DNA of 64,000 bases from Candidatus Aminicenantes bacterium (GTDB lineage: Archaea > Nanobdellota > Nanobdellia > Woesearchaeales > JAFCCF01). The stretch spans positions 12,950-76,949 of the forward strand of contig JAFCCF010000001.1 in the NCBI GenBank assembly GCA_017610325.1, in the 5' to 3' direction. The notes beneath the pieces are model-generated. The model made no database searches and was not told the DNA's origin. It saw only the letters and a program-made list of their open reading frames with translations. Of this stretch, positions 23,018 through 64,000 are shown piece by piece. Every line of letters starts with the position of its first letter. Position 1 is the stretch's first letter. The translations under genes were made by a program, and so were the position numbers.

Positions 23018-23090
23018 TGGGGCCAGGTGGATTCGAACCCCCGCTTCAGCCCCCCGAAGGCTGAGTCATACCAAGCTAGACTATGGCCCC
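23018..23090 (-). tRNA. tRNA-Pro (anticodon CGG), 73 nt, CCA not encoded
   Basis: The reverse complement folds as a cloverleaf: acceptor GGGGCCA/TGGCCCC, anticodon stem CAGCC/GGCTG, loop TTCGGGG (anticodon CGG), T-loop TTCGAAT. There is one G-A mismatch in the T stem as I read it. Confidence 0.75.
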
Positions 23091-30190: not shown

Positions 30191-30193
30191 TTT

Positions 30194-31270: not shown

Positions 31271-31314
31271 AACGAGACAAAAAGTATATATAAAACCTTG
31301 TTTAATTTAAACAT

Positions 31315-32883: not shown

Positions 32884-32889
32884 AGCGTC

Positions 32890-33945: not shown

Positions 33946-34034
33946 CTTACCCCAACAATATTATTATTATTTTGTTCCTTAAATATTTATCGGAAAACTA
34001 AAACTATTTAAATAAAGTTAATTCCTAATCCAGC

Positions 34035-36317: not shown

Positions 36318-36443
36318 CTTAACAGGGTGTTAAAGCAGGACCAGTAACACAGGTTATCGCACCGAAGTGAATTTTCTCTTTGATACAAATTAACTTTGGC
36401 TTAACATACTCCTTCTTTTTTTTATGCATAGTTAATAAATATA

Positions 36444-38536: not shown

Positions 38537-38553
38537 TTTTGGTTTCTAGCGAG

Positions 38554-39978: not shown

Positions 39979-40049
39979 CATGTATTTAAGAAAAGCACAG
40001 ATAATATATATTCTTATCGGCAACCACCAGAAAACCCAATAAATTACTT

Positions 40050-47603: not shown

Positions 47604-50585
47604 ATGTCAAAAAAAGGACAGATTACACTATTTATGGTATTAGGGTTAGTTATTTTGTTCATCTTTGGCTTTGTTCTTATTCTAAGCAATAGTTCTACAG
47701 ATACAACTGAGGTTGAAGAGATATATGCGGATTTTCTCAAGAGTGTTCCAGTTAAGGAATATGCGACCCTGTGCATTGGTGAGGCAACAAAAGAAGGTCT
47801 GAGGCTGCTCGGCAACCAGGGCGGTAAAATCTATAATCACCAGGCAAATGCAACCAGTGTTGCACTAGCACCAATCTATCATTTAAATCCGCAGCCAAAA
47901 CCAATCGCATATGGTTATTATGTAATTCCTTACAATATAAGTGGCAGATGGTACAATGTGTCGTTTGGCATAAAGGATCGCATATCATACCCTTTTACAG
48001 GAGCGCAGAATTACCCTTATATTGACCTTATCCAGAAAAAGAATGTATCGCTTCTTGTGGAACCAAACCTGCTTATACCAACAGAAGACCCGTTCCTTCC
48101 ATTTTCAAAGAAACACCCTCGCAGGTCATTTGGCTACCTGAACCAGTTATGCGATTGCGAGGGTCTTAACAAGCCAGGAAGCAATGTGGCAAGCTGGAGC
48201 TGTGAAACATATGACTGTGAATATGACCTTAGTATGAACCTGCTCCCTGTCAGGAAATCAATGCAGGATTATCTGCAGTTGTATATCAAGAACAAGACAT
48301 TAGAATGCTTGAACATCTCTATTTTTAGGGGATATAATATTAAGGTGGGAAAGCCAGTAGTAAGCTCTGTAATCGGCGATACAGATGTATCAGTGCATGT
48401 TAACCTGCCGCTATTAATAAATGTGTCTGGCAAGGTTTACACAGAGACATTATACTTCTATAAAAATGAAAAAGTCAGGCTCAAGCTTATACATGAGCTT
48501 GCCACCCGTTTGATTAGGGATGATGCAAAAAACATATTCTTTGTTCCAGAGGTTCATACAGATTATCTGCAGGACTGCAGGCTGATTCAGGGCTCTACAA
48601 AATGCCTGCGAGATGGCATGAGTGTCACACGCATAAGAGACCCTGGCACCAGCACAGAAGTAACAGACAGGTATGGGCATGACAACACTTTATATTATTA
48701 TAATGGAAGGTTTGCAGATATAATCAACATAACAGACACAGAATCTGAGCTTGACGGCAAGCCATATTCTTTTTTCTATGCAATTGAGAACAGAAGACCG
48801 GCTTTGGACCTGATGCATGAAACAGAAGGCAGTAATTATGATTCCCTGTATGACTTTGTTGTTTATGAGGGAACTGAACTGCTGCTTGAGCCGTGGGGAT
48901 TTGACCCAGATGGAGATTCTTACGGGGTATGCAAGAGAAACGAACAGGATTGCATGGATTACACTTACCAATATACTGGCTGGAAAGCAGAGTATGAGCA
49001 GGACTTTATCTGGGACAGCTCAGGAAATATTACAGGTGTCTGGCTGACTGAAGCGCACAACCCACAATCAATGAACTTTACACTTACAAACCGGTTTGAC
49101 CCGCACAAGCACAATGACCCATATATATCTGAAAGATTTTTTTCAGATTATCAAGCACAACAGAAATTTACCTGCAGATACCCTTCTGCTTATCCTATAC
49201 TTTCATCTATTTGTTCAGATTACGGTAATAAATGGGAAACATCAAAAGCATACACCCAGACAAACCGCGTTGCAAACTACACAACAAACAGCTCAGATGT
49301 AGGGCCGCATGTTGTTAATATTACAATTATAGATAACAATGGCTTAATGGATTGGCAGTTGATAAGGATACTAGTGTATAATGTGATTGGGCCAGGACAC
49401 CCAGGCACAGATGCCCAAGCAATGACTCCTAACAAGATTGAAAATATCCGCGCTTCGGTTGAAGACCCATACACATTCAAGATTACACCCCTAAACACAA
49501 GGATAGATGGAACAACACACTATACCTGGAAAGACTATGATGAATCTCCAAACCCGCGTAAGTGGGGTCCGTTTGCAGACAGCAATGGCTATGCTGTACA
49601 GCAACTGTTGAAAAACACCGATAATCCAATAGGCATATTCACTAGCACGGGAACCCACAACATAAAGCTTGCGATAACAAACCCATTAGTGATTGCCACC
49701 TTTAATGTTGAGGTATACAATTGCCTGCCATACAGGAACCCAAACTCAGCACCATACCCTTTCAACAGGTTTGCATATGATTTATTTACTGATGATAATA
49801 TTCCAAGCACCCCTGGCTTTGATCCTGAGAAAGACTTTCTTGCAGATCATATATGCTGCAGTGGCATTGGCACTGCGCCAGGCGGCACTATTTGGGGTAC
49901 GCTAAAGTTTGGTGGGCTCCCTTGTTATACTTTTCATGTGCCAGAAACCTGCGGTCCGCCAGGCAACCAACCAATACCCCCAGCAGACCTTGTTGTCAGG
50001 TCAGTCTCAGGCAAGCAGCTCCAGCACATAGCTGAAAGACCAAGTGGAATAGGCGCAACCACTACTTCACCTTCAAATGCAGTTTATGTAAGAACATTTA
50101 CCCAAGCATGCAGTGGCAGCAGGGGAAATGCATGTTCAGGAACCCCCATAGATGATTGGAGGGTCAAGTTTGATTGCGACACCAGAACACCAATCAACAC
50201 ACATAAACAAGAATCTTGTCAGGGTATATTTGGAACAGCAACACAGTATAATACATGTATGAATGATGTCAAGACAACAGGAAAGCCATCAGCTTCAACA
50301 ACATTCCCTGCAGATACAAGTCAATGTCATTTGTTTGATGCTGGTGAGAGCTGGGAAAAAAATGTGCTTGGAACAGGTAATGGTATTTGCCATAAGGAAT
50401 ACAAATGCACAAAAAACCCTGGCGCAGGTGACGGCTACAAAAATCCAGGCACCTCCACCCCATCTGCCCCATATACTCATCGATGTCAAGCTGGGTGCAG
50501 TAATGGGGGCTGCACAGCAGCAATTAACTGCGTACAGTGCCCAACTAAATGTATTCCGCAGAGCGGCGATGATGTGTGCATTTAA
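47604..50585 (+). CDS. large Cys-rich extracellular protein with class III (archaeal prepilin-like) signal peptide
   Basis: 993 aa. N-terminus MSKKGQITLFMVLGLVILFIFGFVLIL has basic residues, G-Q, then a hydrophobic helix, as in type IV pilin-like signals. The rest is a Cys-rich, sequon-rich ectodomain. Confidence 0.7.
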   Translation: MSKKGQITLFMVLGLVILFIFGFVLILSNSSTDTTEVEEIYADFLKSVPVKEYATLCIGEATKEGLRLLGNQGGKIYNHQANATSVALAPIYHLNPQPKPIAYGYYVIPYNISGRWYNVSFGIKDRISYPFTGAQNYPYIDLIQKKNVSLLVEPNLLIPTEDPFLPFSKKHPRRSFGYLNQLCDCEGLNKPGSNVASWSCETYDCEYDLSMNLLPVRKSMQDYLQLYIKNKTLECLNISIFRGYNIKVGKPVVSSVIGDTDVSVHVNLPLLINVSGKVYTETLYFYKNEKVRLKLIHELATRLIRDDAKNIFFVPEVHTDYLQDCRLIQGSTKCLRDGMSVTRIRDPGTSTEVTDRYGHDNTLYYYNGRFADIINITDTESELDGKPYSFFYAIENRRPALDLMHETEGSNYDSLYDFVVYEGTELLLEPWGFDPDGDSYGVCKRNEQDCMDYTYQYTGWKAEYEQDFIWDSSGNITGVWLTEAHNPQSMNFTLTNRFDPHKHNDPYISERFFSDYQAQQKFTCRYPSAYPILSSICSDYGNKWETSKAYTQTNRVANYTTNSSDVGPHVVNITIIDNNGLMDWQLIRILVYNVIGPGHPGTDAQAMTPNKIENIRASVEDPYTFKITPLNTRIDGTTHYTWKDYDESPNPRKWGPFADSNGYAVQQLLKNTDNPIGIFTSTGTHNIKLAITNPLVIATFNVEVYNCLPYRNPNSAPYPFNRFAYDLFTDDNIPSTPGFDPEKDFLADHICCSGIGTAPGGTIWGTLKFGGLPCYTFHVPETCGPPGNQPIPPADLVVRSVSGKQLQHIAERPSGIGATTTSPSNAVYVRTFTQACSGSRGNACSGTPIDDWRVKFDCDTRTPINTHKQESCQGIFGTATQYNTCMNDVKTTGKPSASTTFPADTSQCHLFDAGESWEKNVLGTGNGICHKEYKCTKNPGAGDGYKNPGTSTPSAPYTHRCQAGCSNGGCTAAINCVQCPTKCIPQSGDDVCI

Positions 50586-50639
50586 AACAAAATTTTTTTC
50601 TGCAAGGAACCCAATATTACTAAATATGTAATAGTATTA

Positions 50640-50760
50640 CTTAACTTAGTCTAATGTGCCTTAGTATCATTTAGTGTGTATTAGTATTCTTTAATATGTG
50701 TTAATATTCCTTAATATTCCTTAATGTGTTTTAATGTGTCTTAATATTCAGTTAGATCTA
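50640..50760. repeat. degenerate tandem short repeats (CTTAATATTC / CTTAATGTGT units) in the 5' intergenic region of the RHH/giant-adhesin genes
   Basis: Direct reading: ...tattctttaatatgtgttaatattccttaatattccttaatgtgttttaatgtgtcttaatattc.... Confidence 0.5.
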
Positions 50761-50856
50761 GTAAGAATATATGGTAAGAATATAATCATATAGAAAACTT
50801 TAAATAATACTTAGTATGTAATTATACACAATAGTATACACTAATGTGATTTTAAG

Positions 50857-51003
50857 ATGAAGGAACGGATTACAATCACTATTGATAAAAAATTTCTTAA
50901 GTGGTTAGATGAAAAAGTCAAGGCAAGAGTCTTTGCAAATAGGTCTCATGGCTTTGAATTTTTGATACAAAAGAAAATTGAGGGAGAAAATGAGGAAAAG
51001 TAG
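50857..51003 (+). CDS. small ribbon-helix-helix (CopG/Arc/MetJ-like) DNA-binding protein, unannotated in ORF track
   Basis: 48-aa ORF MKERITITIDKKFLKWLDEKVKARVFANRSHGFEFLIQKKIEGENEEK. Beta-strand ITITID, then helix, then the RSHGFEFLI helix, which is the RHH pattern. It overlaps the ATG (50990) of the giant adhesin gene in another frame. Confidence 0.5.
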   Translation: MKERITITIDKKFLKWLDEKVKARVFANRSHGFEFLIQKKIEGENEEK

Positions 51004-54000
51004 TGGATTTACTTATTTTGCGATTATTTCACTAGTTTTTATTATCTTTAACTCTTATCCTATTCTCGCAGATGGTGAATGCTGTGCAAATCCTTTGGCA
51101 ACAGATATCTGGTGTGTTCCTGGGACATCTGGGGCACCTGTAACTCAGGTTCTTTGCTGTTCAGATGCACTTTTTAGCAGCTTCTGGGACACAAGCCAGC
51201 AATATGCCTCTGTTCCTGACAGTGAAAATAATTGCATAAGCAACTTTTATGATGCTGGTCCAAGCCCTGACTGCACCACAACTAGTAATGCCTGGGTTAA
51301 TACAATGTGTTTCCAAGGTTCTACAACAAGTACGACCACCACCACGCTGGCAACATCTTCCACATCAAGCACAACAACAACCCTTGGTTCAACCACATCT
51401 TCCACTATTAGTTCCACAACAACGATAAGCATAACCTCAACAAGTTCCACATCAACTTCGTCTACCACCACCACACTATGGCTGTACGAGGTCTGCGACA
51501 ATGGCATTGACGACGATGGCAATGGCAGGATTGACTGCGCTGATGGCTATTGTCTTGCAACAAATGCGGTTTGTACCCCTGGGATTTCAGGTAGTAAATG
51601 CTCATGGACAACAAATAGTGGGTCCACTTACAGGTGTTGTGCTTTTTCCAGTGACTGTGATAATGACAACTATGACGAAACATGCGGCGAATGCCCATGC
51701 ATAGTTTTAGCAGAAGCACCTTCCAGCCTCGCTGTTGCACATCAATCTGGCTGGAATTTCAGGCTTACCTGGTTAGTGAGTTGCACAGCAGGAGTCACGT
51801 TTGATGTTTATAGGTGCGAGGGCATTGGCTGTAACCCAATCCTTAAGAGGAATTCTGCACCAGTAACTAATATGTATTTCACAGATACAATCCAGAAAGC
51901 AAACACAGGATATTGTTATGAAGTAAGGGCAAATTATGGGGGTATCCAAGTAAGGTCTAATATTGTGTGCCAAACTTCTGGAGATAGAATCTGCCTGGAT
52001 AATCCGCAGGGCGGGGAATTCTGCGAGACAGCAGTAACACCTACGAAGAGGACCAGATGCGATTCAAGCAACCGCAAGATAGAGGTAGAGGACTGTTTGG
52101 TGGATTATGGTTATGATTATAGGTGTTATGGCCCGTATGGCCAGGGTAGAGAGACAAAGTGCGTACAATATTCTGGCTGCTGGCGCTGTAATTACCTTCT
52201 TGAATTTTTTGGTAACCCATCATACTCAATGGTTTCATATCTTGATGGCATAGAGCTTAAGCAGACACTCTGCAAGGATTATGAATTCTGTTACTATGAT
52301 TCAACTCCAACAATCGCAAACGAGTACATTGACTGCAGTGTTGTTACTGCTGGCAATGGCTGTTATGAATATAATTCAAGGCAGGCATGCGAACAATCAA
52401 ATTTGCAGGATTCGCCTTTCAACAACCGCTGCTTGCAGAGAAACTGTACTTGGAACTGGATATCACAGGAGCTTGGAACCGGAGTGTGCATTGAACAGGA
52501 TGTAAATCTTCAGAAGTGCGAGCTATGTACCCCAGACTTTGTTGCTGGAGATGCTTCACCAAATAAGGTATTTAATCTGTGTGATGTAGCCACATGCAAA
52601 TTATATGGTGAATGTTATCCAAAGGATATTGATAAAGATGGCACGCTGAAAAATTATAATGCACTGGGCCTCACCCAGAACGAAGAGTGTATATCAAAAT
52701 CAAGGGTTTCCTGCGAGGACTTTGGGCAGCAGGAATGCATTGCAACACCATCAGATGGCCAGAGCGGTTCTCAGGCAGTGGCAGTGGATGCAGCTTATCA
52801 AGACCCGAATGACAGGACAACGCGAATTAGCGGCACACACCAGCTGAAAAGAACAAGTTATGATTATTTTGAGTTCGGGGTTTGTGCATATCGGGGCAAC
52901 AGGTGCTTCAAGGACGCAGATAATACAACCACATCTGACCCCAATCCATTGGACATGACCCCACCAATGACAATCATTGACAATGGCCTTGTGCTTGGAA
53001 CACTACAGCTTGCTGTGCAGGTTGTAGATGAAAAGCCAGCAGGCACAGTATGCTCGCCTGCAAGTAATTGTACCGGTCCTCTGGCACTTTACACATGCAT
53101 TGTTAATTCAACCCCTACCCAGGACAACTGTTATCCAACTGATTCTGTTACAATTGATTCAAATGGAATTGGAATCATCGATAATTATATTGGCTATGGC
53201 AATGGCACATACAAGATATTTTATTATGCAGAGGATAATGCAAACAACCTTGAAGAAATCAAATATATTAATGTAACCATTGACAGGGACCCGCCATCCA
53301 TTGACCTGGATTATTTTGTTCTAAGGTCAAATTCTGCGCCTTTCAATGACAGTAATGTTACTATGTTTATCACCACGGACCAGATTGCAGTGTGCAATGA
53401 CCGCTTCTACACCTCACCATCATCTTATCGATCAAGGCTGAATAGCAGCAACGGGGCATTCTTTGAGGTAAACTACACCAGCCTCTTTGATGGTTATTAC
53501 AATTACTTTATCTCGTGCATTGATGGGTTTGGAAACAACAGAACACTGGACACATACATTAGGGTTAATGCAGATGACCGGATTAATACAACCTATCCAA
53601 ATGGTACAATTGATACTACAAGCCCCACTTTGATTATTTCAACAAACAGCCAGGCAACAGAGTGCGTCTACAAGCTCGCAGACCAGGACTGGTCAGATGC
53701 AATACAGTTTGATGTTGGGACAGAAAGCAGTTCACGCACTTATTGGAATTATTCCAAGCAATTAACTGGCCTTGCAGACGGAAGATACACTTATGATGTA
53801 AGGTGCACAATCAATCTGCAGCCATCATATGACCAGATAAGCTTTGTTGTGGACACTGCATCTCCAACCACCTTGGCAATTGACGGGTTAGGCCTTCCAT
53901 ATGATTTTATTGAGCCAAAGAGCTCCCATCGGGTCTACCTGCGGTGCAATGACCAGCCAGCTGGCGGCTTTGGCTGCATGAATACATATTACTGCAAGGG

Positions 54001-57000
54001 CTCTTTCCAGTGCACGCCCGACACAATTTACACAACAGGTCCAATTGAGATTATCGGCGAGCCTTTCTTCTGCTTTTTCTCTGAGGAGAACAGCAGGACC
54101 CACCTTGGTCAGACAATGGGTGGCAAGAACGAATCTGTTGTATGCAGGACCCTAATTACAGATAACATGGACCCACACTTATTTGTGGATATACTGGCTG
54201 AGCTTGCCTTAAATGAATATTTCCTCACAAACCAGAACCCGCTTACAGTAACCGGAACAATAATCGATTATACTTATGACATGTGGGACAGTGATGCTAC
54301 CTGGATAAGCAGTCTATCAAATAATGAGTATGTTGAAGACAATTACGTGTTCACAGATTATAACCTCAGCGCAAACTTCACATTCACTGGTGAATCTGTT
54401 GAGTTTTGGTTTGCGCATGTAAATTCAAGCAAATATTATTATATTTATATTGATAGTTCTGATGACTTCCCAAACAAACAGAATATATACCTTTACAAAA
54501 AAGGCCAGACAGCGCCAGTTGTACCAGGTCAGGAAAACATTAATGTGCTTGAAAACAAAGAGATTATCCTAAATATCACAATTAAGTTAGGCAACTTTGA
54601 GGTTATTCTTAACGGCGAGGCACTGCCTGGTGGGGCAATCACATTTGCATTTGGAGATGCTAGCTATGGCGCAGGAAAAATTGGCGCAAAGGCCCATGCA
54701 AGCAGCACAATTGACTTTGAGGACTTGGTTATCCTTGAATCTGATATGGCTTCCAATAATGAGATTAGGTTAGTGGTGAATGGCGAGACACTGACTACCG
54801 GAGTTTTGGAAAGCAATTTAAGGAACTTTCAACAGTTCAGCTTGGATTCTAACTTAATTGGTGATTATTCAAACTGTAAACAGTGCAGCAGGCTCCAGTT
54901 AACTGCAATTGACAGAGCAGGTAATGATTATGTTAAATATTATCATGTGTATCTTGACCAGAACGGTCCATTCTTTGACAACACATCTATTAAAATGTAT
55001 GATTTTGAGGGAAGTGAAGCCCAGAATGTGGAATACGGAGAAAACACCACTCTGAAAATAAGGGTTTATGATACAGACAATTACAAGGCAACAGTAAATG
55101 TAACAAATGTGACACTTGAGTTTAACAACCATAATTATACACTTGTTAATATAAGCGAACAGTTGCATGACACTTACTGGGAATCTATGGTTGTGACTGA
55201 TGACCTAGGGGTTGGAAGTTATATTCTAACATTTTATGCAAGAGACGCCCTGAACAACATAAACAGCACAATTATTTCAAGAACATTGAATATAACTGAT
55301 ACAAGGGCGCCTTCCTTTGATGTAGTTATATATAATGATTCAGCTAGGACAAACCAGGTTGGTGTTGTAACAATGGGTGCTTATTATGCAAAGATGAACT
55401 CAAGCGAACCATCATTAATAAGGCATTTTAACCTCACGCCACTGGGCTTTACTGCAGAAAACATATTTGTAAACTGTGATAATCGCGGACAATATGCCAC
55501 CAGCTGGCAATGTTCATTTTCAATTGATAATGTGAATTTCCTGGATAAAAACGAGAGATTGCTTAATTTCAAGTTCCTGGCAACAGACAACCATGGAATA
55601 AACCAGACGCAGATTCAGCCAGGATATATAATCCTAAACACAACAGGACCGCAGCCGCCAATATTTGACCCAAACATAAACCACGGTAGTTCGCCAAATA
55701 CCTACGCAAACACATATCCAGACTACCTTACTTCTTACAGTGATGAGTCAACAGACGTGTTCTACACAAACAAGAGCAAGTTGTTTATCACAGGGGCAAG
55801 TGCCCAGTCAAACCATGTAATACTATCAACGCAGGTTGCAGAGAACCAGCCAAATGATGTGATATACACTCAGCAGACAGTCACTAAGCTAGCAGATACA
55901 GCAAACCTGAACTCAGCAGGATTTGGTGTTTCAGTTGCAAATGTTGGCGCAACTGAGATTAAGTTTGAGGGAATTGATTTAACAAGCGATCTAATTAGCA
56001 CTGCTGGTAGCTACCTCATGTTCACAAACCACGACAGGAAAACATACGAGCATTACAAAGAATATTATGCTGTCACAAACAGTATGTATGATGGTTACCT
56101 GACCACAATCTACCTGGCCTCCCCTTTAGAAGGTGCAGTTTCCAAGGATGAGCTTATCAATGTTTATGACAAGCAAAGGTCCAGGGACACGTTTGCCCTA
56201 TACTCAGCCGAACTTACAGACGGCGTAAACAAATTGTTTGCAAAAGGCGTTAACCAACTGGGAAACAAGGGCAGGGAATCAGTAATCCATAACATCTTCT
56301 TTGATGACGAATCTCCGGATGATGTGTTCAGCATACCCTACAGGAACTGGACAATTGGTGATTATTATACAAACATTACCTTCGAAGTGAGGGATAGAAA
56401 TCCAAGTTCAGGCATCAGGCTGATTGATACAAACATAGCCCTGAGATATACGAACACAACTGGAACATATACTCTATACACCAACACAATCCCTTATCTC
56501 CTAGATGCAACATATGCGAATGGCACCTCAAAGGACGGCAATTATAATTATTCATTGCTTGTGTTTGACACAGGGGAGTTCATAAGCACAAGCTACTATC
56601 CTTTGCCAGATGGAAAATATGATGTTACTATATTTCTTAGGGACAGGGCTCATAACTACCTCGCAGGGCAATGGCAGTTCTGGATTAAGCTTGGTGTGCC
56701 TGATATGCCAAACATATCCCTAGCTGACAACGCAGCGTTTACTGCCATAGATAATCCAAATGACATGAATGCCGTTGACGATAGGTTCTTCATAAACCAG
56801 ACCACAGGATATGGTGTGTTGATTGAATATCCAGTAACAGAGACAAACATTGACATAATCTACATCAACATGAGCCCACATGATGCAAAGATAACATGCA
56901 GCAAGGCAACCAATACAAGGTTTGAGTGCAGCTTTGACAATGCACTTGTTGCAAACAAGGATTATGAGATAATGTACACCTCACAAAGGGTGCTGAGCAA

Positions 57001-60000
57001 TGGAAGTAATGGGCCCAAGGTAAACCGCACATTTTACATCACAACTGATAACATTAGCCCCCAGGTAACAGCTATGCAGTTCTTTGATGTGTCGCGCGTA
57101 AACAACACAAACTTTGAGCTGAATATCACCGGATTAAATGAGATGTATGATGTTCTGGTTAAAGTATACCTCGGTAATATCACGCTGGATGAAATTATAA
57201 CCTCTGACAGCTTGATACAGTTCAACAACCTTAACATACCTGATCTTGCTGATATGGGATATAACTTGAAAGCAATCCTGATTGACCAGGCAGGAAATTC
57301 ATTCCCAAAATCAGGCATCCTGACAATTGATAACACTGCACCTGGCGTGAGCGTAACTTCTGTTGCACCAGTAACTAAGGGCATAATGAATACTGGCCTG
57401 ACAAGCTGGATAACTGGCGATGATAATGTTTCTATCAAGGGTGTATATGCTGATGCAAGCATTGATTATATCTGCTACTTTAACCCACATTTTGCACTGT
57501 TTAGCTGTAGCAGGAATGTAAACACAGCAACCATACACCAAGGTAATAATACCTATCAATTGTATGCAAGGGTCTTTGGCCAGGAAAATGGCTCTGATGT
57601 ATATAATAACATAACAATCACCGCAGTTGACAGGGCTGGAAACAGCAGAAGCAGGAGCATAAACCTAACTGCAGATAGGTCACCGCCTATTGTGAATCTG
57701 ACAGCACCCAGGGTTGGAATCACAAGCATACTGACTCCAACAATTGTTGTGTCTACAGACGAAGTATCAAACTGTAATCTGTCATACAATACTATATCTA
57801 ACGCAGCAATGACCGGAGCGCCAAACAACACGCACGTGTACACTGTTACAACCAGTTTGGCAACTAACCAGAACAACACATTCAGGGTAGAGTGCAGGGA
57901 CCAGCTAGGCAACATTGGCGAGGAAACATACTACATTTATGCAGATACCATAACTCCAATAATCAACGGTGTGACTGTGACACCAGGTTTCCTTAACCAT
58001 AGCTCAACTAGCTTTAGCATGTATGTTGTGTACAGTCAGGTAGTTGAGCCATACCTAACAGTAAACCTTAATGAGTTGTCAATATGTAGGTATGGCACAA
58101 GCAATATATACAATACAATGCAGAAATTCCCTGGATATAATGAGTCACAGTATAGCATACAGCACAATTCTCTTTCAATTAGGAATATGTTGGTTGAGAA
58201 CCAAACAACTTACTTATATGTGGCATGCGAGGACCGGGGCGGAAACGTTGCAAATGTTTATAGGGTTGGAATCAAGCTTGACCCTGATGCGCCAATTATG
58301 CCGTTTAACCCCCAACCAACAGGATTTGTTACAACAAATGAGCCAAATGTGTCTGTGAACACGTACAGGTTAGCAAGATGGTGTGGAATAACATCTATAA
58401 ATGGTGGTGCACCAATCAACATTTCACTTGAATGGAAGGGGCAGGATACAACTACTGGAATCCAAACATATGCCCGCATATTACAGGGATTGCAAGAAGG
58501 CCAGACATACACTATCGAGATAAGCTGTGCAGCAAGTCCGCGCGGCTCAGTTACATTCAGCTTTACGATTGACACAGAAGGCCCAGCAACGATTATTGAG
58601 GTCCAGTCAAGCTCATACAAACCAAATATATATGTGATGTTTAATGAGGGTGTCACGATTAAGAGCGCCATCTTGACAGGCCCTTCTGGCACAGTTACAG
58701 TCCAAGGTCAGCAGCACACTACCAGTAATTACACATATGTCCCTATTCAGAATCTGACAAACACAACATACACGTTCAGTGTTGTTGCAACTGATTCAAG
58801 GGGCAATTCAAAGGAAACAACAAAATTATTTACCCTTCCAATTGATTACCTTAACATAACCCTTATAAAGCCAATCGATGGCTGGATAAATGAGACAACC
58901 TTTGAGGTTGTAATAGAAACAGACAGGAGAGCAATGTGCAGGTATGACCGAAATTATCGCAACTATACTGGAATGAACAAGGACTTCACAACAAGCAATA
59001 GAATAACCCACAAGATAGATGATTTTAATTACAGCGAGACCAATAAGCTTATCTTTGTAACATGCAGGGACCTGTACGGGGCAGCCACACCTGTGCCAAA
59101 ATTAATAGAATTCATGTATGATCCAGTTGCACCAGTAATAACTACAAGTGTAAGCCCAAGAACAGTTGCAGAATACCTTGTATTAAATGGAAGCTCGCAG
59201 TTATTTACAAAACTCACGATTGATTCAGATAAGCCCGCATTCTGTAGATACAGTCGCACCTCTGACGTGTACGAACTAATGGAACACCAGACAAAGAACA
59301 AGTCAAGGCACCACGAAGTTTACATAACTGGCTTGGTTGATGGCATGTCTTATAATTATAATGTGCGATGCATAAGCCTGGCAAATGTTGTAAGTAATTA
59401 TGAAGTTGTATCATTTGATGTTGACATAACACAGCCAGTGCAGATCATAAGCGTGACACCTGCATCAGGTTCATACCTTGGCAGCGGCTCAGGAGTAAAA
59501 CTAAATGTATCAACCAATAAGCATGCAGACTGTAGGGTAAACTCATCAAGCAATGGCCTGAGTTATATTTCTTCGCTGAGCTTAAACAAGGTTAACCATT
59601 GGTTTAACCTGCCAACACTTACAAGGGAGGGCGAGTTTGACTTTAATATTTGGTGTATGGATATTAACCGGGATACTGTTTCTGCTGTTGTAAGGCTTAT
59701 ATTTGACAAGACAGCCCCTTCAGACCCAGAGATTGAATATGTGTATGCCTGCACAGACAACGAGATTAAGGCAAGGGTCAAGTCAGAGGATAACCTGACT
59801 GGCATAGTTGGTTACAATTATTCGCTTGTTGACGATACAAATGGTTCAGACTTGATAGAGCACAAGTACGAGAGCGGTGATGATGATGAGATTATAAGGA
59901 TTAGATATGATGATTATGGTAGGCTGGAGCTTAACACGAGCCACTATTATGTACTGAGTGTGTGGGCTAAGAATGGCGCTGGCTTGTACAGCAGAGAGGT

Positions 60001-61543
60001 TGAATCAAGCACATTCAAGGTTGACCCAACAGACACTGACTATTGCCCATACCAACCGCCAACTAACTGCTCAGACCACTGTGATGACAACCTCAAGAAC
60101 TGCGGCGAGACTAGCAAGGACTGCGGCGGCACATGCGTGTCAGAAGGAAAGAAGTGCCCAAATACAAAATCCTGTGTAATTGATTCAGACTGTGAGTCAG
60201 GTTACTGCAACCCAACAACCAAGAAGTGCGAGACCTCGCTGTGCGAGAACGAAGAATTGGATATAACCAACCTTGAGACTGATGAGGACTGCGGCGGCAG
60301 CAATTGTCCTGCTTGCGGTATTGGCGAGAACTGTAAGGTAGATAATGATTGTGAGGGAAACAATTACTGTGATAGCAATACAAAAAAATGTGTAAGTCCG
60401 TCTTGTAGTGATAATAAGATGAACATACATGATGGGCAAGCAGAGACAGATCGTGATTGCGGCGGTCCATGCGTACTAATTGGCAAGCTATGTGCAAACG
60501 GTCTTGGCTGTGCAGATGACACTGATTGCGAATCAGGATTCTGCGTGCCAATAACTAACTTATGCGCGCAGCCAACGTGCACCGACGGTTATAAGAACCA
60601 GGATGAGACCGGCCCAGATTGCGGCGGTAGCTGCGTTGCAGAAGGCAAGAAATGCCTAGATGGCGAACAATGCACATCAAAAGAAGATTGTATCAGCGAT
60701 TACTGCGGTTCAGGTTACTGCAGGGCAGAACCTGGCCAGGATTCAGACGGAGATGGAATGCCTGATGAATGGGAAGACAAATACCAGCTTGATAAAAATG
60801 ATCCAACTGATGCAACCTGGGACAATGATGGGGATGGTCTGACAAACCTTGAAGAATACAGAAAGCAGACAAATCCACTTGATCAGGACACAGATGGTGA
60901 TAATTATAATGATGGTGATGAAATTACCAACAGAACAGATCCAACTGACCCTAATTCATACCCAAAAAAATCAAACCTATTCAGAACAATTCTGCTTATT
61001 ATTATATTCTTGATACTGCTCGGAGCTGCAGGTTACCTTGGATATATTGAACTAAGAAAGATGGGGGGGATTGGCAAGAAGAAAATGCCACCACCAAGAG
61101 GATCACCACAGCAGAGGACACTCAACCTGATGAAAGGTACGATGCCAGGTGTACCAACACAACCACGGCAACCAAGACCAATGCAGCCAAAAACACCAGC
61201 GCCCCTTATGCCGTTCCAGATTCAAGCAAGAAAGCAAAAAGCCACCATTGTAAAGAAAAAAGACAGGAGAAAACTGTTTGATTCATTTTCTGGAGCAGAA
61301 CCAATAAAACCAGTTGTTAAGGAGATACCTAAACCAACTGAAGAACCTAAGAAAGAAGGGGTTGGGTGGATTACACTCAAGGCTAAAAAACCGTCAAAGA
61401 AGCTGTCAAGGAAGCCTATAGAAGGGGATGTCTTTGCAAGACTAAAAAAGATAGCAGAAGAAGGTAAAACCCCCAAAACTGGCAGAAAAAAGGATGTTTT
61501 TAAGGAATTGAGCAAACAAAAGCCAAAAAAGAAAAAGAGGTAG
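50990..61543 (+). CDS. giant (about 3518 aa) membrane-anchored surface adhesin-like protein
   Basis: The ORF tool starts at TTG 50978; ATG 50990 gives MRKSSGFTYFAIISLVFIIFNSYPILA|DGE, a Sec signal peptide. Downstream are a Cys-rich module, an S/T linker (51322-51480) and a very long beta-rich region with many NxS/T sequons. Four about 55-aa 8-Cys repeats lie at 60090-60735, and Asp-rich DxDxDG Ca-binding-like repeats at 60737-60960. A C-terminal TM helix is at 60978-61050, followed by a basic/Pro-rich cytoplasmic tail. Confidence 0.8.
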   Translation: MRKSSGFTYFAIISLVFIIFNSYPILADGECCANPLATDIWCVPGTSGAPVTQVLCCSDALFSSFWDTSQQYASVPDSENNCISNFYDAGPSPDCTTTSNAWVNTMCFQGSTTSTTTTTLATSSTSSTTTTLGSTTSSTISSTTTISITSTSSTSTSSTTTTLWLYEVCDNGIDDDGNGRIDCADGYCLATNAVCTPGISGSKCSWTTNSGSTYRCCAFSSDCDNDNYDETCGECPCIVLAEAPSSLAVAHQSGWNFRLTWLVSCTAGVTFDVYRCEGIGCNPILKRNSAPVTNMYFTDTIQKANTGYCYEVRANYGGIQVRSNIVCQTSGDRICLDNPQGGEFCETAVTPTKRTRCDSSNRKIEVEDCLVDYGYDYRCYGPYGQGRETKCVQYSGCWRCNYLLEFFGNPSYSMVSYLDGIELKQTLCKDYEFCYYDSTPTIANEYIDCSVVTAGNGCYEYNSRQACEQSNLQDSPFNNRCLQRNCTWNWISQELGTGVCIEQDVNLQKCELCTPDFVAGDASPNKVFNLCDVATCKLYGECYPKDIDKDGTLKNYNALGLTQNEECISKSRVSCEDFGQQECIATPSDGQSGSQAVAVDAAYQDPNDRTTRISGTHQLKRTSYDYFEFGVCAYRGNRCFKDADNTTTSDPNPLDMTPPMTIIDNGLVLGTLQLAVQVVDEKPAGTVCSPASNCTGPLALYTCIVNSTPTQDNCYPTDSVTIDSNGIGIIDNYIGYGNGTYKIFYYAEDNANNLEEIKYINVTIDRDPPSIDLDYFVLRSNSAPFNDSNVTMFITTDQIAVCNDRFYTSPSSYRSRLNSSNGAFFEVNYTSLFDGYYNYFISCIDGFGNNRTLDTYIRVNADDRINTTYPNGTIDTTSPTLIISTNSQATECVYKLADQDWSDAIQFDVGTESSSRTYWNYSKQLTGLADGRYTYDVRCTINLQPSYDQISFVVDTASPTTLAIDGLGLPYDFIEPKSSHRVYLRCNDQPAGGFGCMNTYYCKGSFQCTPDTIYTTGPIEIIGEPFFCFFSEENSRTHLGQTMGGKNESVVCRTLITDNMDPHLFVDILAELALNEYFLTNQNPLTVTGTIIDYTYDMWDSDATWISSLSNNEYVEDNYVFTDYNLSANFTFTGESVEFWFAHVNSSKYYYIYIDSSDDFPNKQNIYLYKKGQTAPVVPGQENINVLENKEIILNITIKLGNFEVILNGEALPGGAITFAFGDASYGAGKIGAKAHASSTIDFEDLVILESDMASNNEIRLVVNGETLTTGVLESNLRNFQQFSLDSNLIGDYSNCKQCSRLQLTAIDRAGNDYVKYYHVYLDQNGPFFDNTSIKMYDFEGSEAQNVEYGENTTLKIRVYDTDNYKATVNVTNVTLEFNNHNYTLVNISEQLHDTYWESMVVTDDLGVGSYILTFYARDALNNINSTIISRTLNITDTRAPSFDVVIYNDSARTNQVGVVTMGAYYAKMNSSEPSLIRHFNLTPLGFTAENIFVNCDNRGQYATSWQCSFSIDNVNFLDKNERLLNFKFLATDNHGINQTQIQPGYIILNTTGPQPPIFDPNINHGSSPNTYANTYPDYLTSYSDESTDVFYTNKSKLFITGASAQSNHVILSTQVAENQPNDVIYTQQTVTKLADTANLNSAGFGVSVANVGATEIKFEGIDLTSDLISTAGSYLMFTNHDRKTYEHYKEYYAVTNSMYDGYLTTIYLASPLEGAVSKDELINVYDKQRSRDTFALYSAELTDGVNKLFAKGVNQLGNKGRESVIHNIFFDDESPDDVFSIPYRNWTIGDYYTNITFEVRDRNPSSGIRLIDTNIALRYTNTTGTYTLYTNTIPYLLDATYANGTSKDGNYNYSLLVFDTGEFISTSYYPLPDGKYDVTIFLRDRAHNYLAGQWQFWIKLGVPDMPNISLADNAAFTAIDNPNDMNAVDDRFFINQTTGYGVLIEYPVTETNIDIIYINMSPHDAKITCSKATNTRFECSFDNALVANKDYEIMYTSQRVLSNGSNGPKVNRTFYITTDNISPQVTAMQFFDVSRVNNTNFELNITGLNEMYDVLVKVYLGNITLDEIITSDSLIQFNNLNIPDLADMGYNLKAILIDQAGNSFPKSGILTIDNTAPGVSVTSVAPVTKGIMNTGLTSWITGDDNVSIKGVYADASIDYICYFNPHFALFSCSRNVNTATIHQGNNTYQLYARVFGQENGSDVYNNITITAVDRAGNSRSRSINLTADRSPPIVNLTAPRVGITSILTPTIVVSTDEVSNCNLSYNTISNAAMTGAPNNTHVYTVTTSLATNQNNTFRVECRDQLGNIGEETYYIYADTITPIINGVTVTPGFLNHSSTSFSMYVVYSQVVEPYLTVNLNELSICRYGTSNIYNTMQKFPGYNESQYSIQHNSLSIRNMLVENQTTYLYVACEDRGGNVANVYRVGIKLDPDAPIMPFNPQPTGFVTTNEPNVSVNTYRLARWCGITSINGGAPINISLEWKGQDTTTGIQTYARILQGLQEGQTYTIEISCAASPRGSVTFSFTIDTEGPATIIEVQSSSYKPNIYVMFNEGVTIKSAILTGPSGTVTVQGQQHTTSNYTYVPIQNLTNTTYTFSVVATDSRGNSKETTKLFTLPIDYLNITLIKPIDGWINETTFEVVIETDRRAMCRYDRNYRNYTGMNKDFTTSNRITHKIDDFNYSETNKLIFVTCRDLYGAATPVPKLIEFMYDPVAPVITTSVSPRTVAEYLVLNGSSQLFTKLTIDSDKPAFCRYSRTSDVYELMEHQTKNKSRHHEVYITGLVDGMSYNYNVRCISLANVVSNYEVVSFDVDITQPVQIISVTPASGSYLGSGSGVKLNVSTNKHADCRVNSSSNGLSYISSLSLNKVNHWFNLPTLTREGEFDFNIWCMDINRDTVSAVVRLIFDKTAPSDPEIEYVYACTDNEIKARVKSEDNLTGIVGYNYSLVDDTNGSDLIEHKYESGDDDEIIRIRYDDYGRLELNTSHYYVLSVWAKNGAGLYSREVESSTFKVDPTDTDYCPYQPPTNCSDHCDDNLKNCGETSKDCGGTCVSEGKKCPNTKSCVIDSDCESGYCNPTTKKCETSLCENEELDITNLETDEDCGGSNCPACGIGENCKVDNDCEGNNYCDSNTKKCVSPSCSDNKMNIHDGQAETDRDCGGPCVLIGKLCANGLGCADDTDCESGFCVPITNLCAQPTCTDGYKNQDETGPDCGGSCVAEGKKCLDGEQCTSKEDCISDYCGSGYCRAEPGQDSDGDGMPDEWEDKYQLDKNDPTDATWDNDGDGLTNLEEYRKQTNPLDQDTDGDNYNDGDEITNRTDPTDPNSYPKKSNLFRTILLIIIFLILLGAAGYLGYIELRKMGGIGKKKMPPPRGSPQQRTLNLMKGTMPGVPTQPRQPRPMQPKTPAPLMPFQIQARKQKATIVKKKDRRKLFDSFSGAEPIKPVVKEIPKPTEEPKKEGVGWITLKAKKPSKKLSRKPIEGDVFARLKKIAEEGKTPKTGRKKDVFKELSKQKPKKKKR

Positions 61544-61556
61544 GCTTCGTTCTAAA

Positions 61557-62042
61557 ATGAAAAAGGGGCAGGTAACTGGGCAGGTTTTCATCTACATCAT
61601 TTCAGCAGTTATTATTGGATTTGTGCTTTTGTTTGGAATCCAGGCAGTGCTTAAGATACTGAAGACTGGCTGTGATGTTGAGATGATAGAATTTAAGCAG
61701 GGGCTTGAGGATAGGTTTAAGAAAGGCATGCAGCATGGTGTTGTTAATGACAGGCCAATTAGCGTACCTTCATGCTCTAATTTTGCAGAGGTTTGTTTTG
61801 TTCAGCTTGACAAAGAAGCCCCACCCTCCTTGTATTCTTCAAGGCCGCTTATATATAACAGCTGGGAGGATAAGGTTGAGGCGAATGTCTTCTTTATTGC
61901 TGATGGTCCTGAATTATTTATGTATGTTAAAGGTTTAGAAGTAAAGAACCCATTCTGGTTATGTGAACCTGTGGTCAGCGGAAGGATAAGCACGCTGCGC
62001 TTCATTGGTCAGGGAGATGGCATACTAGTAGACCAAATCTGA
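61557..62042 (+). CDS. pilin-like protein with class III signal peptide
   Basis: 161 aa. MKKGQVTGQVFIYIISAVIIGFVLLFGI: KKGQ followed by a hydrophobic helix. Confidence 0.55.
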   Translation: MKKGQVTGQVFIYIISAVIIGFVLLFGIQAVLKILKTGCDVEMIEFKQGLEDRFKKGMQHGVVNDRPISVPSCSNFAEVCFVQLDKEAPPSLYSSRPLIYNSWEDKVEANVFFIADGPELFMYVKGLEVKNPFWLCEPVVSGRISTLRFIGQGDGILVDQI

Positions 62043-62046: not shown

Positions 62047-63138
62047 ATGCTTAAAAAAAGGGGTGCGATTGAGATACAGTTTAATTGGATTTTTGTTCTT
62101 ATAATCGGAGCCCTGATTCTTGGATTCTTTGGCAAGATAGTATATAACCAGATACAGCTTTCAAAGGAGGAAACAGATATAGCAATCCAGACAAAGCTAA
62201 AAACCATAATCAAGAATGCCAAGGAAAGTACTGGTTCGGTCTTCGAGGTTAACCTAAAGAGGACAGAGATAAGGTATAATGATTGCACAGAGGGCCTGGA
62301 AACAGGAGGTACCCTTACTCCAATCAAGATAACCACAGCATTTGCTCCGAATCTTGTCAAAAGCGCGACAGGTAAGGTATATTTCTGGGCAGTTGACTGG
62401 AACATGCCATATCGTGTTGAAAATTTCATATTTATCACATCCCCTGATATAAAATATGTGGTTGTCAACACCAGCGAAGATACAGAAAAGTATGCGCTCG
62501 AGATATACAATGGAACACAGGTGATAAGCCTCCCTGACAGGTTCAACAAGCTCTTCATGGATTTTGATGAAGCAAAAAACCTGCAACCAAACAATTACTA
62601 CAAGACCCGCTTTATCTTCTTTGATGTTTTGGATTTCCATGCTTTTAACCCGCAGAACAGCTTTTTCCTGGATGATGCCATTGATGTATCTGCTGTGCTG
62701 ATAAATCCAACCTCAGGTAACCTGGACGGTTATGGTGATGTGGAATATCGCGTGAAAAAAACAACATCATCCACTCTAGAGTATGTTGGCGACTCAAAGT
62801 ATCTTGCAAGGGCATCTATGTTTGGTGCTATAATCTCTGAGAATATCAGCCATTATGATTGTGTGATGGAAGAGGCAATAGAGCGCCTTAACTTAGTAAG
62901 CTTGGTTTACAAGAAGCGCACAGAAAATTTACAAACCCAGCTTCCAGTTGGTGGTGACTGTACTGATTATGGTATATACCCACTTGCAGCCGGCCATCTT
63001 CAGAATATCATTGATATGTCAACCATTTTTAAAACAGACAATTTTGTCAGCATCTACACAGATGCATTTTCAGACGCAGGAAGCGTGAAAACACTTAATC
63101 ATCTCGCAATCATGAAGAGCTGTCCTTTGGTGTATTAA
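62047..63138 (+). CDS. pilin-like / pilus-associated protein with class III signal peptide
   Basis: 363 aa. MLKKRGAIEIQFNWIFVLIIGALILGFFG: a KRGA cleavage-like motif with Glu at +3 and a hydrophobic helix. Confidence 0.55.
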   Translation: MLKKRGAIEIQFNWIFVLIIGALILGFFGKIVYNQIQLSKEETDIAIQTKLKTIIKNAKESTGSVFEVNLKRTEIRYNDCTEGLETGGTLTPIKITTAFAPNLVKSATGKVYFWAVDWNMPYRVENFIFITSPDIKYVVVNTSEDTEKYALEIYNGTQVISLPDRFNKLFMDFDEAKNLQPNNYYKTRFIFFDVLDFHAFNPQNSFFLDDAIDVSAVLINPTSGNLDGYGDVEYRVKKTTSSTLEYVGDSKYLARASMFGAIISENISHYDCVMEEAIERLNLVSLVYKKRTENLQTQLPVGGDCTDYGIYPLAAGHLQNIIDMSTIFKTDNFVSIYTDAFSDAGSVKTLNHLAIMKSCPLVY

Positions 63139-63162: not shown

Positions 63163-63666
63163 TTGAGTGCTCAAAAACAGAAGGTTTTTGACATGCGCAA
63201 GTCACAGATAAAAATGGGAGAGACAATCGCGGTCTTGATAGTCTTCTTCATACTTCTGCTTGTGGGCATGGTATTCTATGCAAAGTTTAAAGGAGATAGC
63301 ATAGAAAGGAAAAGGGAAGAGATGGATATCATGAACACTATTGAGATTGCAATCAAGGCATCGCGGCTGCCAGAACTGCAGTGCACAACAGCAGGCATAG
63401 AATGCGGCAACACAATTGACCTGCTGAAGCTCCAGGCCCTTGAGGAGATAATAAAATATGACCTTATTGGAAACCCATACTATGACATGTTCTATGCAAG
63501 CGAGATTGTTATTGAGCAGGTTTATCCAACAACAAACAGCTGGATACTCTATAACTTTTCAGGCGGCAAGACATCTGTGCAGCCAGTTTATGTCCCAGTT
63601 ACAATACATGATGTTATTACAGATGAATATAGCTTTGGATTCATAAGAGTTGGTGTTTATGTCTAA
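63163..63666 (+). CDS. pilin-like protein (class III signal-like N-terminus); start possibly Met at 63193
   Basis: 167 aa. ...MRKSQIKMGETIAVLIVFFILLLVGMVF, a basic motif followed by a hydrophobic helix. Confidence 0.45.
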   Translation: MSAQKQKVFDMRKSQIKMGETIAVLIVFFILLLVGMVFYAKFKGDSIERKREEMDIMNTIEIAIKASRLPELQCTTAGIECGNTIDLLKLQALEEIIKYDLIGNPYYDMFYASEIVIEQVYPTTNSWILYNFSGGKTSVQPVYVPVTIHDVITDEYSFGFIRVGVYV

Positions 63667-64000
63667 AAAGAGCCAGATGGAAATATTAGGATTGGCGGTA
63701 GTGATAGTGCTTATTTTGCTAGGTTTTCTGCTATATCTTAGATTTGGAATGAATGGCAATAATGCTGACTTTGAGGAGTTTGCTGACCCAAAAATGGCAG
63801 CATCAACACTCAATGCAATGCTCAAGACAACTGTTTCCTGCGATTCAAAAAAATATTCAATCACCGAATTGCTGCAGGATTGCTATAACTGGAAGATGGT
63901 TTATTGCGGAGGGCAGGATTCATGCACATTTGCCGAAAACAGCCTGGGAATCATGCTCGATACTTCGCTCAAGCAATGGGGTAAGGGTTACTGGTTCCTT
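63663..64000 (+). CDS. pilin-like protein, 3'-truncated by window end
   Basis: MSKKSQMEILGLAVVIVLILLGFLLYL... then a Cys-containing ectodomain. Open to the end of the window. Overlaps the previous gene by 4 nt. Confidence 0.45.

Follow-up and report, generated by a model that had tools for sequence, protein, structure and literature searches.

A 64,000-nucleotide (nt) stretch of contig JAFCCF010000001.1, hereafter the window, contains a single open reading frame (ORF) of 10.5 kb, which raises the question of what a protein of this size does for the cell that encodes it. We refer to the gene and its product as the giant. The gene occupies 10,554 of the 64,000 nt (16.5%), in line with the one sixth stated in an earlier note on this DNA; that note had recognized the giant, and its count of 3518 amino acids (aa) becomes 3517 when translation begins at the ATG at 50990. 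The giant is best read as a type I membrane glycoprotein of Woesearchaeota, a DPANN lineage, built like a fibrillar adhesin, and on balance we think it probable that it serves as an adhesin-like contact protein working with pilin-like partners.

The window is a piece of archaeal chromosome, encoding PolD DP2 and DP1, Orc1/Cdc6, aIF-2B, a tRNA-splicing endonuclease, FEN1, TFE and RNase P p30. The closest named relatives of PolD DP2 (59–64% identity) are all labeled Candidatus Woesearchaeota, Nanoarchaeota or Nanoarchaeia, which agrees with the small-genome DPANN archaeon that had been proposed as the source; the two closest sequences share 69% identity with DP2 of the window. The giant diverges faster than PolD in the same genomes, at 44–46% identity as opposed to 69%.

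The frame of the giant is uninterrupted on the plus strand from TTG 50978 or ATG 50990 to the stop codon ending at 61543. The ATG is preceded by a Shine-Dalgarno-like GAGGGAG and matches, in the alignment, the starts of two full-length orthologues, P0002 (3539 aa, from a Joint Genome Institute (JGI) metagenome) and P0003 (3548 aa, from a Sequence Read Archive (SRA) run). These orthologues come from independent metagenomes, are 43–46% identical to the giant and align collinearly with it from the signal peptide to the last residue. No DNA tandem repeats were found within the gene, which makes repeat collapse unlikely, and the base composition of the locus is unremarkable. The earlier note had listed frameshifts or assembly chimerism as what would refute it; on the evidence of sequence, the open 10.5-kb frame and the two collinear orthologues rule out a chimera, and we conclude that the giant is a genuine gene.

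Architecture of the giant

Hydropathy analysis found exactly two hydrophobic segments in the giant, at aa 7–29 and aa 3331–3352. The first lies in a Sec-type signal peptide, in which a 14-residue h-region is followed by NSYPILA/DG (the slash marks the predicted cleavage site). The layout is the same in the orthologues, with the AxA-like sites SATA/SG and SFASA/YG. A class III (pilin) signal, defined by a [KR]-[GA] cleavage motif directly before a hydrophobic helix of ~20 aa, was considered for the giant and rejected: the 14-aa h-region is too short, and a polar c-region with an AxA-like site is found in three of three orthologues. The second segment is the single transmembrane (TM) helix (hydropathy 2.55). 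It is the best-conserved segment of the protein, with 64% invariant positions compared with 36% overall across the three orthologues, which suggests a specific intramembrane partner. The tail beyond it comprises 162 aa, including 36 Lys, 12 Arg and 22 Pro, and has a net charge of +35, and the ectodomain has a net charge of −185; the predicted topology is type I, with the positive-inside rule obeyed. Overall, these features agree well with the cell-anchored surface giant described from the letters alone, including its cleavable Sec-type signal, its Ser/Thr linker (aa 111–162, kept in both orthologues), its C-terminal TM helix and its basic, Pro-rich tail.

The tail is of low complexity, with no Pfam match and no enzymatic domain. 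It carries two copies of a D-V-F-x-x-L motif, GDVFARLKK (from aa 3479) and KDVFKELSK (from aa 3501), in the region of window positions 61427–61540, which encode aa 3480–3517. Of 33 family tails, 13 contain the pattern D-φ-F-x-x-L, compared with 0.1 expected from shuffled tails, and looser variants occur in others. In P0049, several copies can be seen by eye, and the strict pattern finds four in the last 250 residues. In its form D-φ-F-x-x-L(x)K, near the C-terminus and followed by poly-Lys, the motif looks like an amphipathic short linear motif, and we infer that it docks a cytoplasmic partner. No PGF motif or PGF-CTERM-type signal was found at the C-terminus of the giant; the conserved 162-aa tail follows the TM helix instead.

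The mature protein would open with a Cys-rich module (aa 29–110), which we call the “CCANP” module. Its GCC...C...GCCC consensus recurs at the start of family members, and a paralogue of it opens a separate protein of ~300 aa in L001 and L002, the two loci orthologous to that of the giant. This extra gene, located directly upstream of the giant (9021–9917 in L001, 8996–9928 in L002), encodes a Sec signal, the “CCANP” module and a C-terminal TM helix; in the window it has either been lost or was never present.

Beyond the Thr/Ser-rich linker lies the head (aa 163–1060), the best-conserved extracellular part of the giant (43–50% invariant positions versus ~32% in the stalk, across the three orthologues). 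The head begins with an acidic double-disulfide repeat-like motif, which NCBIfam acid_disulf_rpt matches at aa 168–195 with 28 bits, below the cut-off of 41; motifs of this CDNGIDDD / IDCADGYC type are common among Myxococcota proteins. A word-indexed homology search with the head returned short motif matches only. We defined the head family by an exhaustive HMMER search of representative proteins with a profile of aa 163–1330, which yielded 968 representatives at E ≤ 1e-3, 398 at E ≤ 1e-10 and 101 at E ≤ 1e-30. Family profile coverage reaches approximately position 965: many members are 2000–2300 aa long and match positions 5–965 in one stretch, and a few are giants of 4000–6100 aa. The total length range of the family, 1700–6100 aa, arises by gain and loss of Ig-like domains. 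The 8-Cys modules described below and the C-terminal TM helix are also present in 23 of the 148 top family matches. The cysteines of the head are invariant in alignments of 46–68 members, with at least 14 invariant. All named members belong to Woesearchaeota, Nanoarchaeota or an “archaeon”, and their annotation is “hypothetical protein”, with one “carboxypeptidase regulatory-like domain” protein.

Structure prediction had been suggested as a check, and an AlphaFold2 model of aa 163–1130, computed with 46 family members as the alignment, reached a predicted local distance difference test (pLDDT) score of 79.5 and a predicted template modeling (pTM) score of 0.58. With the three orthologues only, the model of aa 163–1330 was unusable (pLDDT 31). 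The usable model consists of an FN3 domain (aa ~245–329 in the model), a Cys-rich region and Ig-like domains. The Cys-rich region, or head core (aa ~332–655), is predicted to form short hairpins and helices, with pLDDT mostly 75–90, and has no sequence match in Pfam, NCBIfam or PDB. It is followed by four Ig-like beta-sandwich domains, in which the hidden Markov model (HMM) of the repeats described below has matches at aa 777–865 and 863–958. A PDB profile search with the head-family alignment produced Ig/FN3 matches only, and the best structural matches of the head model in Foldseek were giant adhesins (SiiE, GhpA) and FN3/Ig arrays.

The stalk begins with diverged beta-sandwich domains (aa 1063–2231), in which Big_3_3 is marginally recognized at aa 2090–2223 (29.9 bits; cut-off 27). 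A ConA/LamG-like jelly-roll insert is possible at aa ~1095–1260; with a six-sequence alignment this segment gave no PDB profile match, and Pfam matches around it are sub-threshold only (CE2_N inside, Wzt_C downstream). Seven Cys-pair Ig-like repeats follow (aa 2232–2909), which together with two at aa 777–958 make at least nine by self-HMM. Big_13 is marginally recognized at aa 2565–2619 (33.1 bits; cut-off 27), and the three-orthologue profile matches the BIg domains of SiiE in PDB (2yn3). Motif and HMM counts place the number of beta-sandwich domains in the giant at ~20–25, and Pfam and NCBIfam recognize only Big_13, Big_3_3 and TSP3_bac, in addition to the sub-threshold acid_disulf_rpt. The 120 cysteines of the giant (3.4%) cluster at aa 1–720 and aa 3019–3244 and form regular pairs in the Ig-like repeats.

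Next to the membrane, both kinds of repeats that the earlier note had described were recovered. The four tandem 8-Cys modules, with the pattern C..N..ETDxDCGG.C..C..G..C....DC.SG.C......C, were located by regular expression and alignment at aa 3027–3244. No Pfam model matches the module. The pattern C..N..E[ST]D[VI]DCGG.C..C..G..C....DC.S..C is also found in Myxococcota proteins, and judging by this pattern the module is a widespread, uncurated extracellular Cys-rich module. Tandem 8-Cys “ETDVDCGG” modules were also observed in bacterial proteins at loci L006 and L008 (Proteobacteria and Myxococcota metagenome-assembled genomes). The Ca-binding-like, thrombospondin type 3 (TSP3) repeats are recognized above the gathering cut-off by Pfam TSP3_bac (PF18884), with 37.7 bits on aa 3010–3330 (cut-off 25; E 1.7e-9; three stretches) and 27.5 bits on the whole protein.

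The giant contains 78 N-x-S/T sequons (2.2 per 100 aa), whereas composition-preserving shuffles contain 49 ± 6 (z ~5) and the reversed motif occurs 37 times. Both orthologues are similarly enriched (z 4.3), and 30 sequon positions are common to all three proteins at ~45% pairwise identity; the cytoplasmic proteins of the window show no such enrichment. Enrichment and conservation thus uphold the earlier remark on sequons, and its “very high density” is an overstatement at 2.2 per 100 aa. N-glycosylation of the giant is supported by these sequon statistics, not by the gene neighborhood. The note had linked it to flanking GT2, GT-C and Wzx genes, and these proved distant. The GT2 gene (43187–43981) lies 7 kb upstream of the giant, with two genes of ~1000 codons between them, and is absent from the corresponding place in L001 and L002. 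The GT-C gene (31315–32883), 19 kb away, encodes a PMT_2-type enzyme rather than an AglB/STT3 N-oligosaccharyltransferase, and the Wzx-like flippase (27537–28970) is 22 kb away. No AglB/STT3 match was found among the scanned window ORFs of at least 150 aa, and we rejected a functional link between the giant and these three genes, which are not syntenic with it. Overall, the surface giant, the DPANN host and the Ca-binding-like repeats of the earlier note stand and its flanking glycosylation genes do not; the pilin-like cluster, the large head family and the conserved tail motif were absent from it.

Pilin-like neighbors and the rest of the window

The giant belongs to a gene cluster (Table 1) that we compared with the orthologous loci L001 and L002, with L043 around the 6098-aa P0049 and with L044 around the 2132-aa P0030; sequence homology of the neighbors was checked in these four loci. 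The same gene order, namely two proteins of ~1000 aa, the head protein and proteins of ~165, 363, 160 and 170 aa, is common to the window, L001, L002, L043, L044, L045 and L047, and L046 ends at a contig end. The first upstream protein, secreted or anchored, is Cys-rich, and its counterparts at the same place have ~1050–1264 aa in L043 and L044 and 1757 aa in L045. The second has the N-terminus of a class III (type IV pilin-like) protein, as do the small proteins encoded downstream, whose genes are spaced in an operon-like manner, from 13 nt down to overlap. The fifth of the pilin-like genes runs off the window; N-termini similar to its own, compared without alignment, open the fourth downstream gene in L001 and L002. 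When a relaxed, FlaFind-like class III pattern was run on all 74 ORFs of the window, it matched only the genes at 47604, 61557, 62047, 63193 and 63659 and one spurious antisense ORF.

Variants of the cluster are instructive. In L045 (8001–16786) the giant is split between two adjacent genes, one for an 1855-aa head protein that has no TM helix and one for a 1062-aa Big_13/TSP3 protein. Splits of this kind may account for the numerous ~2000-aa family members with no C-terminal anchor. In P0036, read-through has fused a family member to its downstream pilin-like gene. Small pilin-like genes form runs of at least 12 in both L001 and L044; an Amidase_3 gene with a pilin-like N-terminus lies inside the L001 run (27017–28009), and a Peptidase_M23 gene follows the L044 run (26173–26399). 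Both encode peptidoglycan hydrolases, and their location at or near the ends of the runs hints at bacterial hosts. Such cell-wall hydrolases would be in keeping with contact to bacterial walls, which has been proposed for other large proteins of Woesearchaeota (PMC8204110). RNase P p30 precedes the cluster in the window, L001, L002 and L045, and this arrangement, kept in several lineages, points to a fixed place in the chromosome and not to a mobile island. We ruled out an integrated virus or mobile element, given the unremarkable composition and the RNase P p30 neighbor kept across several lineages. As a separate observation, the NifU gene upstream of the cluster in L002 (1–219) carries an intein with a LAGLIDADG endonuclease.

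Table 1 Features of the giant and its gene cluster in window coordinates
Feature	Position	Strand	Basis or detail
1172-aa Cys-rich (6.7% Cys), signal-bearing protein	44019–47537	+	Translation; orthologues in L001/L002, 43–46% identity
993-aa protein, class III (type IV pilin-like) N-terminus MSKKGQITLFMVLGLVILF	47604–50585	+	Orthologues in L001, L002, L043, L044
48-aa ribbon-helix-helix (RHH)/CopG-like ORF, MKERITITIDKKFLKWLDEKV...	50857–51003	+	Pfam RHH_1, E 0.0048, below cut-off
Giant gene	50990–61543	+	3517 aa and stop; ORF, translation, collinear orthologues P0002/P0003
Sec-type signal peptide, aa 1–28 (MRKSSG, 14-aa h-region, NSYPILA/DG)	50990–51073	+	Hydropathy
“CCANP” Cys-rich module, aa 29–110	51074–51319	+	Cys pattern kept in orthologues
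Thr/Ser-rich linker, aa 111–162	51320–51475	+	Translation; three of three orthologues
Acidic double-disulfide repeat-like motif CDNGIDDDGNGRIDCADGYC and Cys-rich segment, aa 163–244	51476–51721	+	
FN3 domain, aa ~245–331	51722–51982	+	AlphaFold2 model
Cys-rich head core, aa ~332–655	51983–52954	+	Invariant cysteines; AlphaFold2
Four Ig-like beta-sandwich domains of the head module, aa ~656–1062	52955–54175	+	AlphaFold2 with DSSP
Central stalk, diverged beta-sandwich domains, aa 1063–2231	54176–57682	+	Motif scan, xDxAGN...D..P endings
Seven Cys-pair Ig-like repeats, aa 2232–2909	57683–59716	+	Self-HMM, E 1e-20 to 1e-36
Four 8-Cys modules, aa 3027–3080, 3085–3134, 3139–3192, 3197–3244	60068–60721	+	Regular expression, alignment
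Three bacterial TSP3 repeats, aa 3251–3321 (starts 3251, 3278, 3300)	60740–60952	+	Pfam TSP3_bac, regular expression
Single TM helix, aa 3331–3352	60980–61045	+	Hydropathy 2.55
Lys/Arg/Pro-rich cytoplasmic tail, two D-V-F-x-x-L motifs (aa 3480, 3502)	61046–61540	+	Charge, motif scan
161-aa pilin-like protein MKKGQVTGQVFIYIISAVIIGF	61557–62042	+	Starts 13 nt after the stop of the giant; orthologues in L001, L002, L043, L044
363-aa pilin-like protein MLKKRGAIEIQFNWIFVLIIGALILGF	62047–63138	+	Class III-like N-terminus; neighbor homology in L001, L002, L043, L044
157-aa pilin-like protein MRKSQIKMGETIAVLIVFF	63193–63666	+	From internal Met; ORF from TTG 63163 is 167 aa
Fifth pilin-like gene MSKKSQMEILGLAVVIVLILLGF	63659–64000	+	Runs off the window

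Two features lie at the start of the giant gene. The 404-nt gap before it (50586–50989) holds a degenerate 10-bp tandem array with the consensus TTAATATGTC, which Tandem Repeats Finder places at 50661–50749 and which, by eye, starts at ~50620 (50620–50750, ~13 copies); a TATA-like TTTAAATA box follows at ~50800. The stop of the RHH/CopG-like ORF overlaps the ATG of the giant, and the ORF is absent from L001 and L002. Its product may act as a regulator of the giant gene that is specific to this lineage, and the array could be an operator array for this small downstream protein.

Farther upstream, a block at 25968–41477 contains five clear radical-SAM genes and one sub-threshold one, three of them with a B12-binding domain. 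The Wzx-like gene, an NTP_transf_5 gene (30194–31270), the PMT_2-type GT-C gene and an S24/S26-like signal peptidase gene (36444–36986) lie in the same block, which may represent a pathway for a modified glycan or lipid and is not syntenic with the giant. A stand-alone Cas4 / PD-(D/E)XK nuclease gene (23231–24070) adjoins tRNA-Pro(CGG) (23018–23090); no CRISPR array or other cas genes were found in the window.

Possible roles of the giant

Adhesion, Ca2+ dependence and host attachment are putative properties of the giant. Read from the outside inwards, the protein consists, by sequence and model, of a Cys-rich cap, the Thr/Ser linker, a head of ~900 aa, a beta-sandwich stalk of ~2000 aa, the 8-Cys and TSP3 repeats, the TM helix and the tail. 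With ~20–25 domains of ~4 nm each, the stalk would reach ~80–100 nm and hold the head beyond the cell envelope, N-glycosylated and stiffened by disulfides and Ca2+. The head would bind a conserved ligand carried by another cell or surface, and the tail motif would dock a cytoplasmic partner. The giant would act with the 1172-aa Cys-rich protein, the 993-aa pilin-like protein and at least four small pilin-like proteins, and these partners may form a pseudopilus-like or tip-like assembly. Fibrillar adhesins have been defined by surface attachment, a tandem-repeat stalk and at least one adhesive domain (bioRxiv 10.1101/2020.12.07.414375). The giant shows surface attachment, with a type of anchor unlike the bacterial one, and a stalk of tandem domains.

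Several observations weigh against the view of the giant as an adhesin. The tips of adhesins usually evolve fast, and the high lineage-wide conservation of the head is unusual for such a tip; it is the strongest argument against a classical adhesin, and the head could bind a partner protein in its own cell and not a host. Pfam, NCBIfam and PDB/structure comparison of the head identified no known adhesive, lectin or enzymatic domain. The TSP3 repeats are few (three) and adjoin the membrane, such that Ca2+ may serve local structure only. As for the partners, no Pfam or NCBIfam pilin profile matches the pilin-like neighbors, whose N-terminal motif is the sole basis for the name, and neither the window nor the loci examined showed an ATPase for pilus assembly, a platform protein or a prepilin peptidase.

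The conservation that is awkward for an adhesin would suit a component of a pilus-like or secretion-like machine, an explanation that we consider rather unlikely overall. Here the giant would be the membrane-embedded base or scaffold, with the pilin-like proteins assembled on it or surrounding it; its head would bind these partners or a substrate destined for uptake, and its tail would provide the link to a motor or other partner in the cytoplasm. Conceivable analogues are the complex of minor pilins with PilY1 at a pilus tip, or the nanohaloarchaeal giants viewed as secretion devices. The strict gene order across distant lineages beside RNase P p30, the tight operon-like spacing downstream and the conservation of the TM helix (64% invariant), the tail motif and the head all speak for such a machine. 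In addition, a reinterpretation of nanohaloarchaeal giants treats them as secretion devices (PMC10266531), and genes with class III signals flank the giants of Omnitrophota (bioRxiv 10.1101/2023.11.21.568195). However, the loci examined showed no ATPase, platform or secretin-like gene, the tail, at 162 aa, is short, of low complexity and devoid of an enzymatic domain, and a family length that varies from 1700 to 6100 aa via Ig-like gain and loss is typical of spacer stalks. This explanation also overlaps with the adhesin-like reading more than it excludes it.

A structural glycoprotein of the envelope, either surface layer (S-layer)-like or a canopy or spacer for a pseudo-periplasmic space, would need no specific ligand, and we regard it as improbable. 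The Sec signal, the conserved sequons, the Ig-like folds, the Thr-rich linker and the C-terminal anchor are all as in archaeal S-layer glycoproteins, the family occurs very widely within the lineage, and an S-layer candidate described from DPANN archaea has Ig-like folds and numerous glycosylation sites (bioRxiv 10.1101/2023.10.27.564410). Conversely, the giant diverges faster than housekeeping proteins (44–46% versus 69% identity for PolD), and its linear array of at least ~20 beta-sandwich domains predicts a fibre rather than a lattice. The archaeal S-layer proteins known to us are all far shorter and less variable in length than the family of the giant, which has 3517 aa itself and spans 1700–6100 aa. 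This variable length, together with the long conserved tail, where a 162-aa segment with conserved motifs takes the place of a PGF-CTERM-type signal, is the strongest argument against an S-layer role. Finally, an assembly chimera, a frameshifted pseudogene or a mis-called ORF is hardly credible: the metagenomic origin and the ease with which long repetitive genes misassemble are outweighed by the unbroken 10.5-kb frame, the collinearity of P0002 and P0003 over the whole length, the lack of DNA tandem repeats in the gene, a head common to hundreds of family members and the 23 of 148 top matches with 8-Cys modules and a C-terminal TM helix.

Known relatives in design and a candidate contact apparatus

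As a kind, giant stalked surface proteins of episymbiotic microbes are already known, and the giant belongs among them. What is new is the lineage-wide Cys-rich head family, the fixed pilin-like cluster and the conserved cytoplasmic motif; full-text literature searches found no published description of the head family or the locus. According to one groundwater study, DPANN genomes lack type IV pilus components (bioRxiv 10.1101/2020.05.14.094862). Among bacterial proteins, Salmonella SiiE (PDB 2yn3/2yn5) and Aureispira GhpA (PDB 9flw, 9g8b) share with the giant a long Ig/FN3-like stalk, Ca-binding elements and a distal non-repeat region, and its sequence-profile and Foldseek matches reach SiiE BIg domains and GhpA fragments. 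SiiE, however, uses type 1 secretion and outer-membrane retention, whereas the giant has the archaeal type I arrangement of a Sec signal, a C-terminal TM helix and a cytoplasmic tail. Compared with bacterial fibrillar adhesins in general, its head has no known adhesive domain and is rich in disulfides and sequons.

Closer to home are the nanohaloarchaeal “SPEARE” giants (SVXNc_0300, BNXNv_0298; Hamm et al. 2019), for which host contact has been proposed (PMC10266531). Like the giant, they are DPANN proteins that combine a Sec signal and Ig-like/fibronectin-like arrays with a membrane span close to the C-terminus and a region in the cytoplasm (PMC10266531). In contrast, they have 5998–9409 aa and a VirB4/TraG-like ATPase domain (PMC10266531), and the giant has 3517 aa and a 162-aa basic tail, a different head, and pilin-like neighbors instead of secretion ATPases. 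No VirB4/TraG-like ATPase domain was found in the giant, whose tail has no Pfam match, and its homology searches turned up no annotated SPEARE-like protein, with no SPEARE sequence compared directly.

Other large surface proteins resemble the giant in part. The dockerin-type giants of Omnitrophota are also membrane-anchored and extracellular, with bacterial TSP3 repeats and small class III signal genes nearby; they differ in being bacterial, ~ten times longer (>30,000 aa), rich in dockerins and flanked by a type II/type IV secretion system (T2SS/T4SS)-like region (bioRxiv 10.1101/2023.11.21.568195). No dockerin was found in the giant and no T2SS/T4SS-like system in the window. Within the same lineage, contact with bacterial walls has been proposed for large extracellular proteins that carry a murein lytic transglycosylase domain in Woesearchaeota and Pacearchaeota (PMC8204110). 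Their size and extracellular location, and the peptidoglycan hydrolase genes near loci related to the giant, form the likeness; Pfam and NCBIfam detected no lytic transglycosylase or other catalytic domain in the giant itself. Archaeal S-layer glycoproteins share the Sec signal, the sequons, a Thr-rich segment, Ig-like folds and the C-terminal membrane anchor, and differ from the giant in size, fibre-like array, long conserved tail and the length variation of its family.

A bolder proposal, which we offer tentatively and consider doubtful as it stands, is that the giant and its fixed neighbors represent an undescribed contact apparatus found throughout Woesearchaeota, a counterpart of SPEARE assembled from unrelated parts. 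Its disulfide-locked head, without an identified structural relative, would recognize the envelope of a host; a short pseudopilus or tip complex, made of the pilin-like proteins, would surround the stalk or stand next to it; and the TM helix and D-φ-F-x-x-L motifs would couple binding on the outside to a cytoplasmic partner. The loci in question often have a peptidoglycan hydrolase gene after them and often adjoin RNase P p30.

Among DPANN archaea, Woesearchaeota belong to the most widespread, and to our knowledge none is in culture. The locus is conserved and easy to recognize, and it provides a candidate contact apparatus for this poorly understood lineage. The head family comprises several hundred sequence clusters that databases now label “hypothetical”, and the conserved head and tail motif offer concrete experimental targets for the study of host contact.

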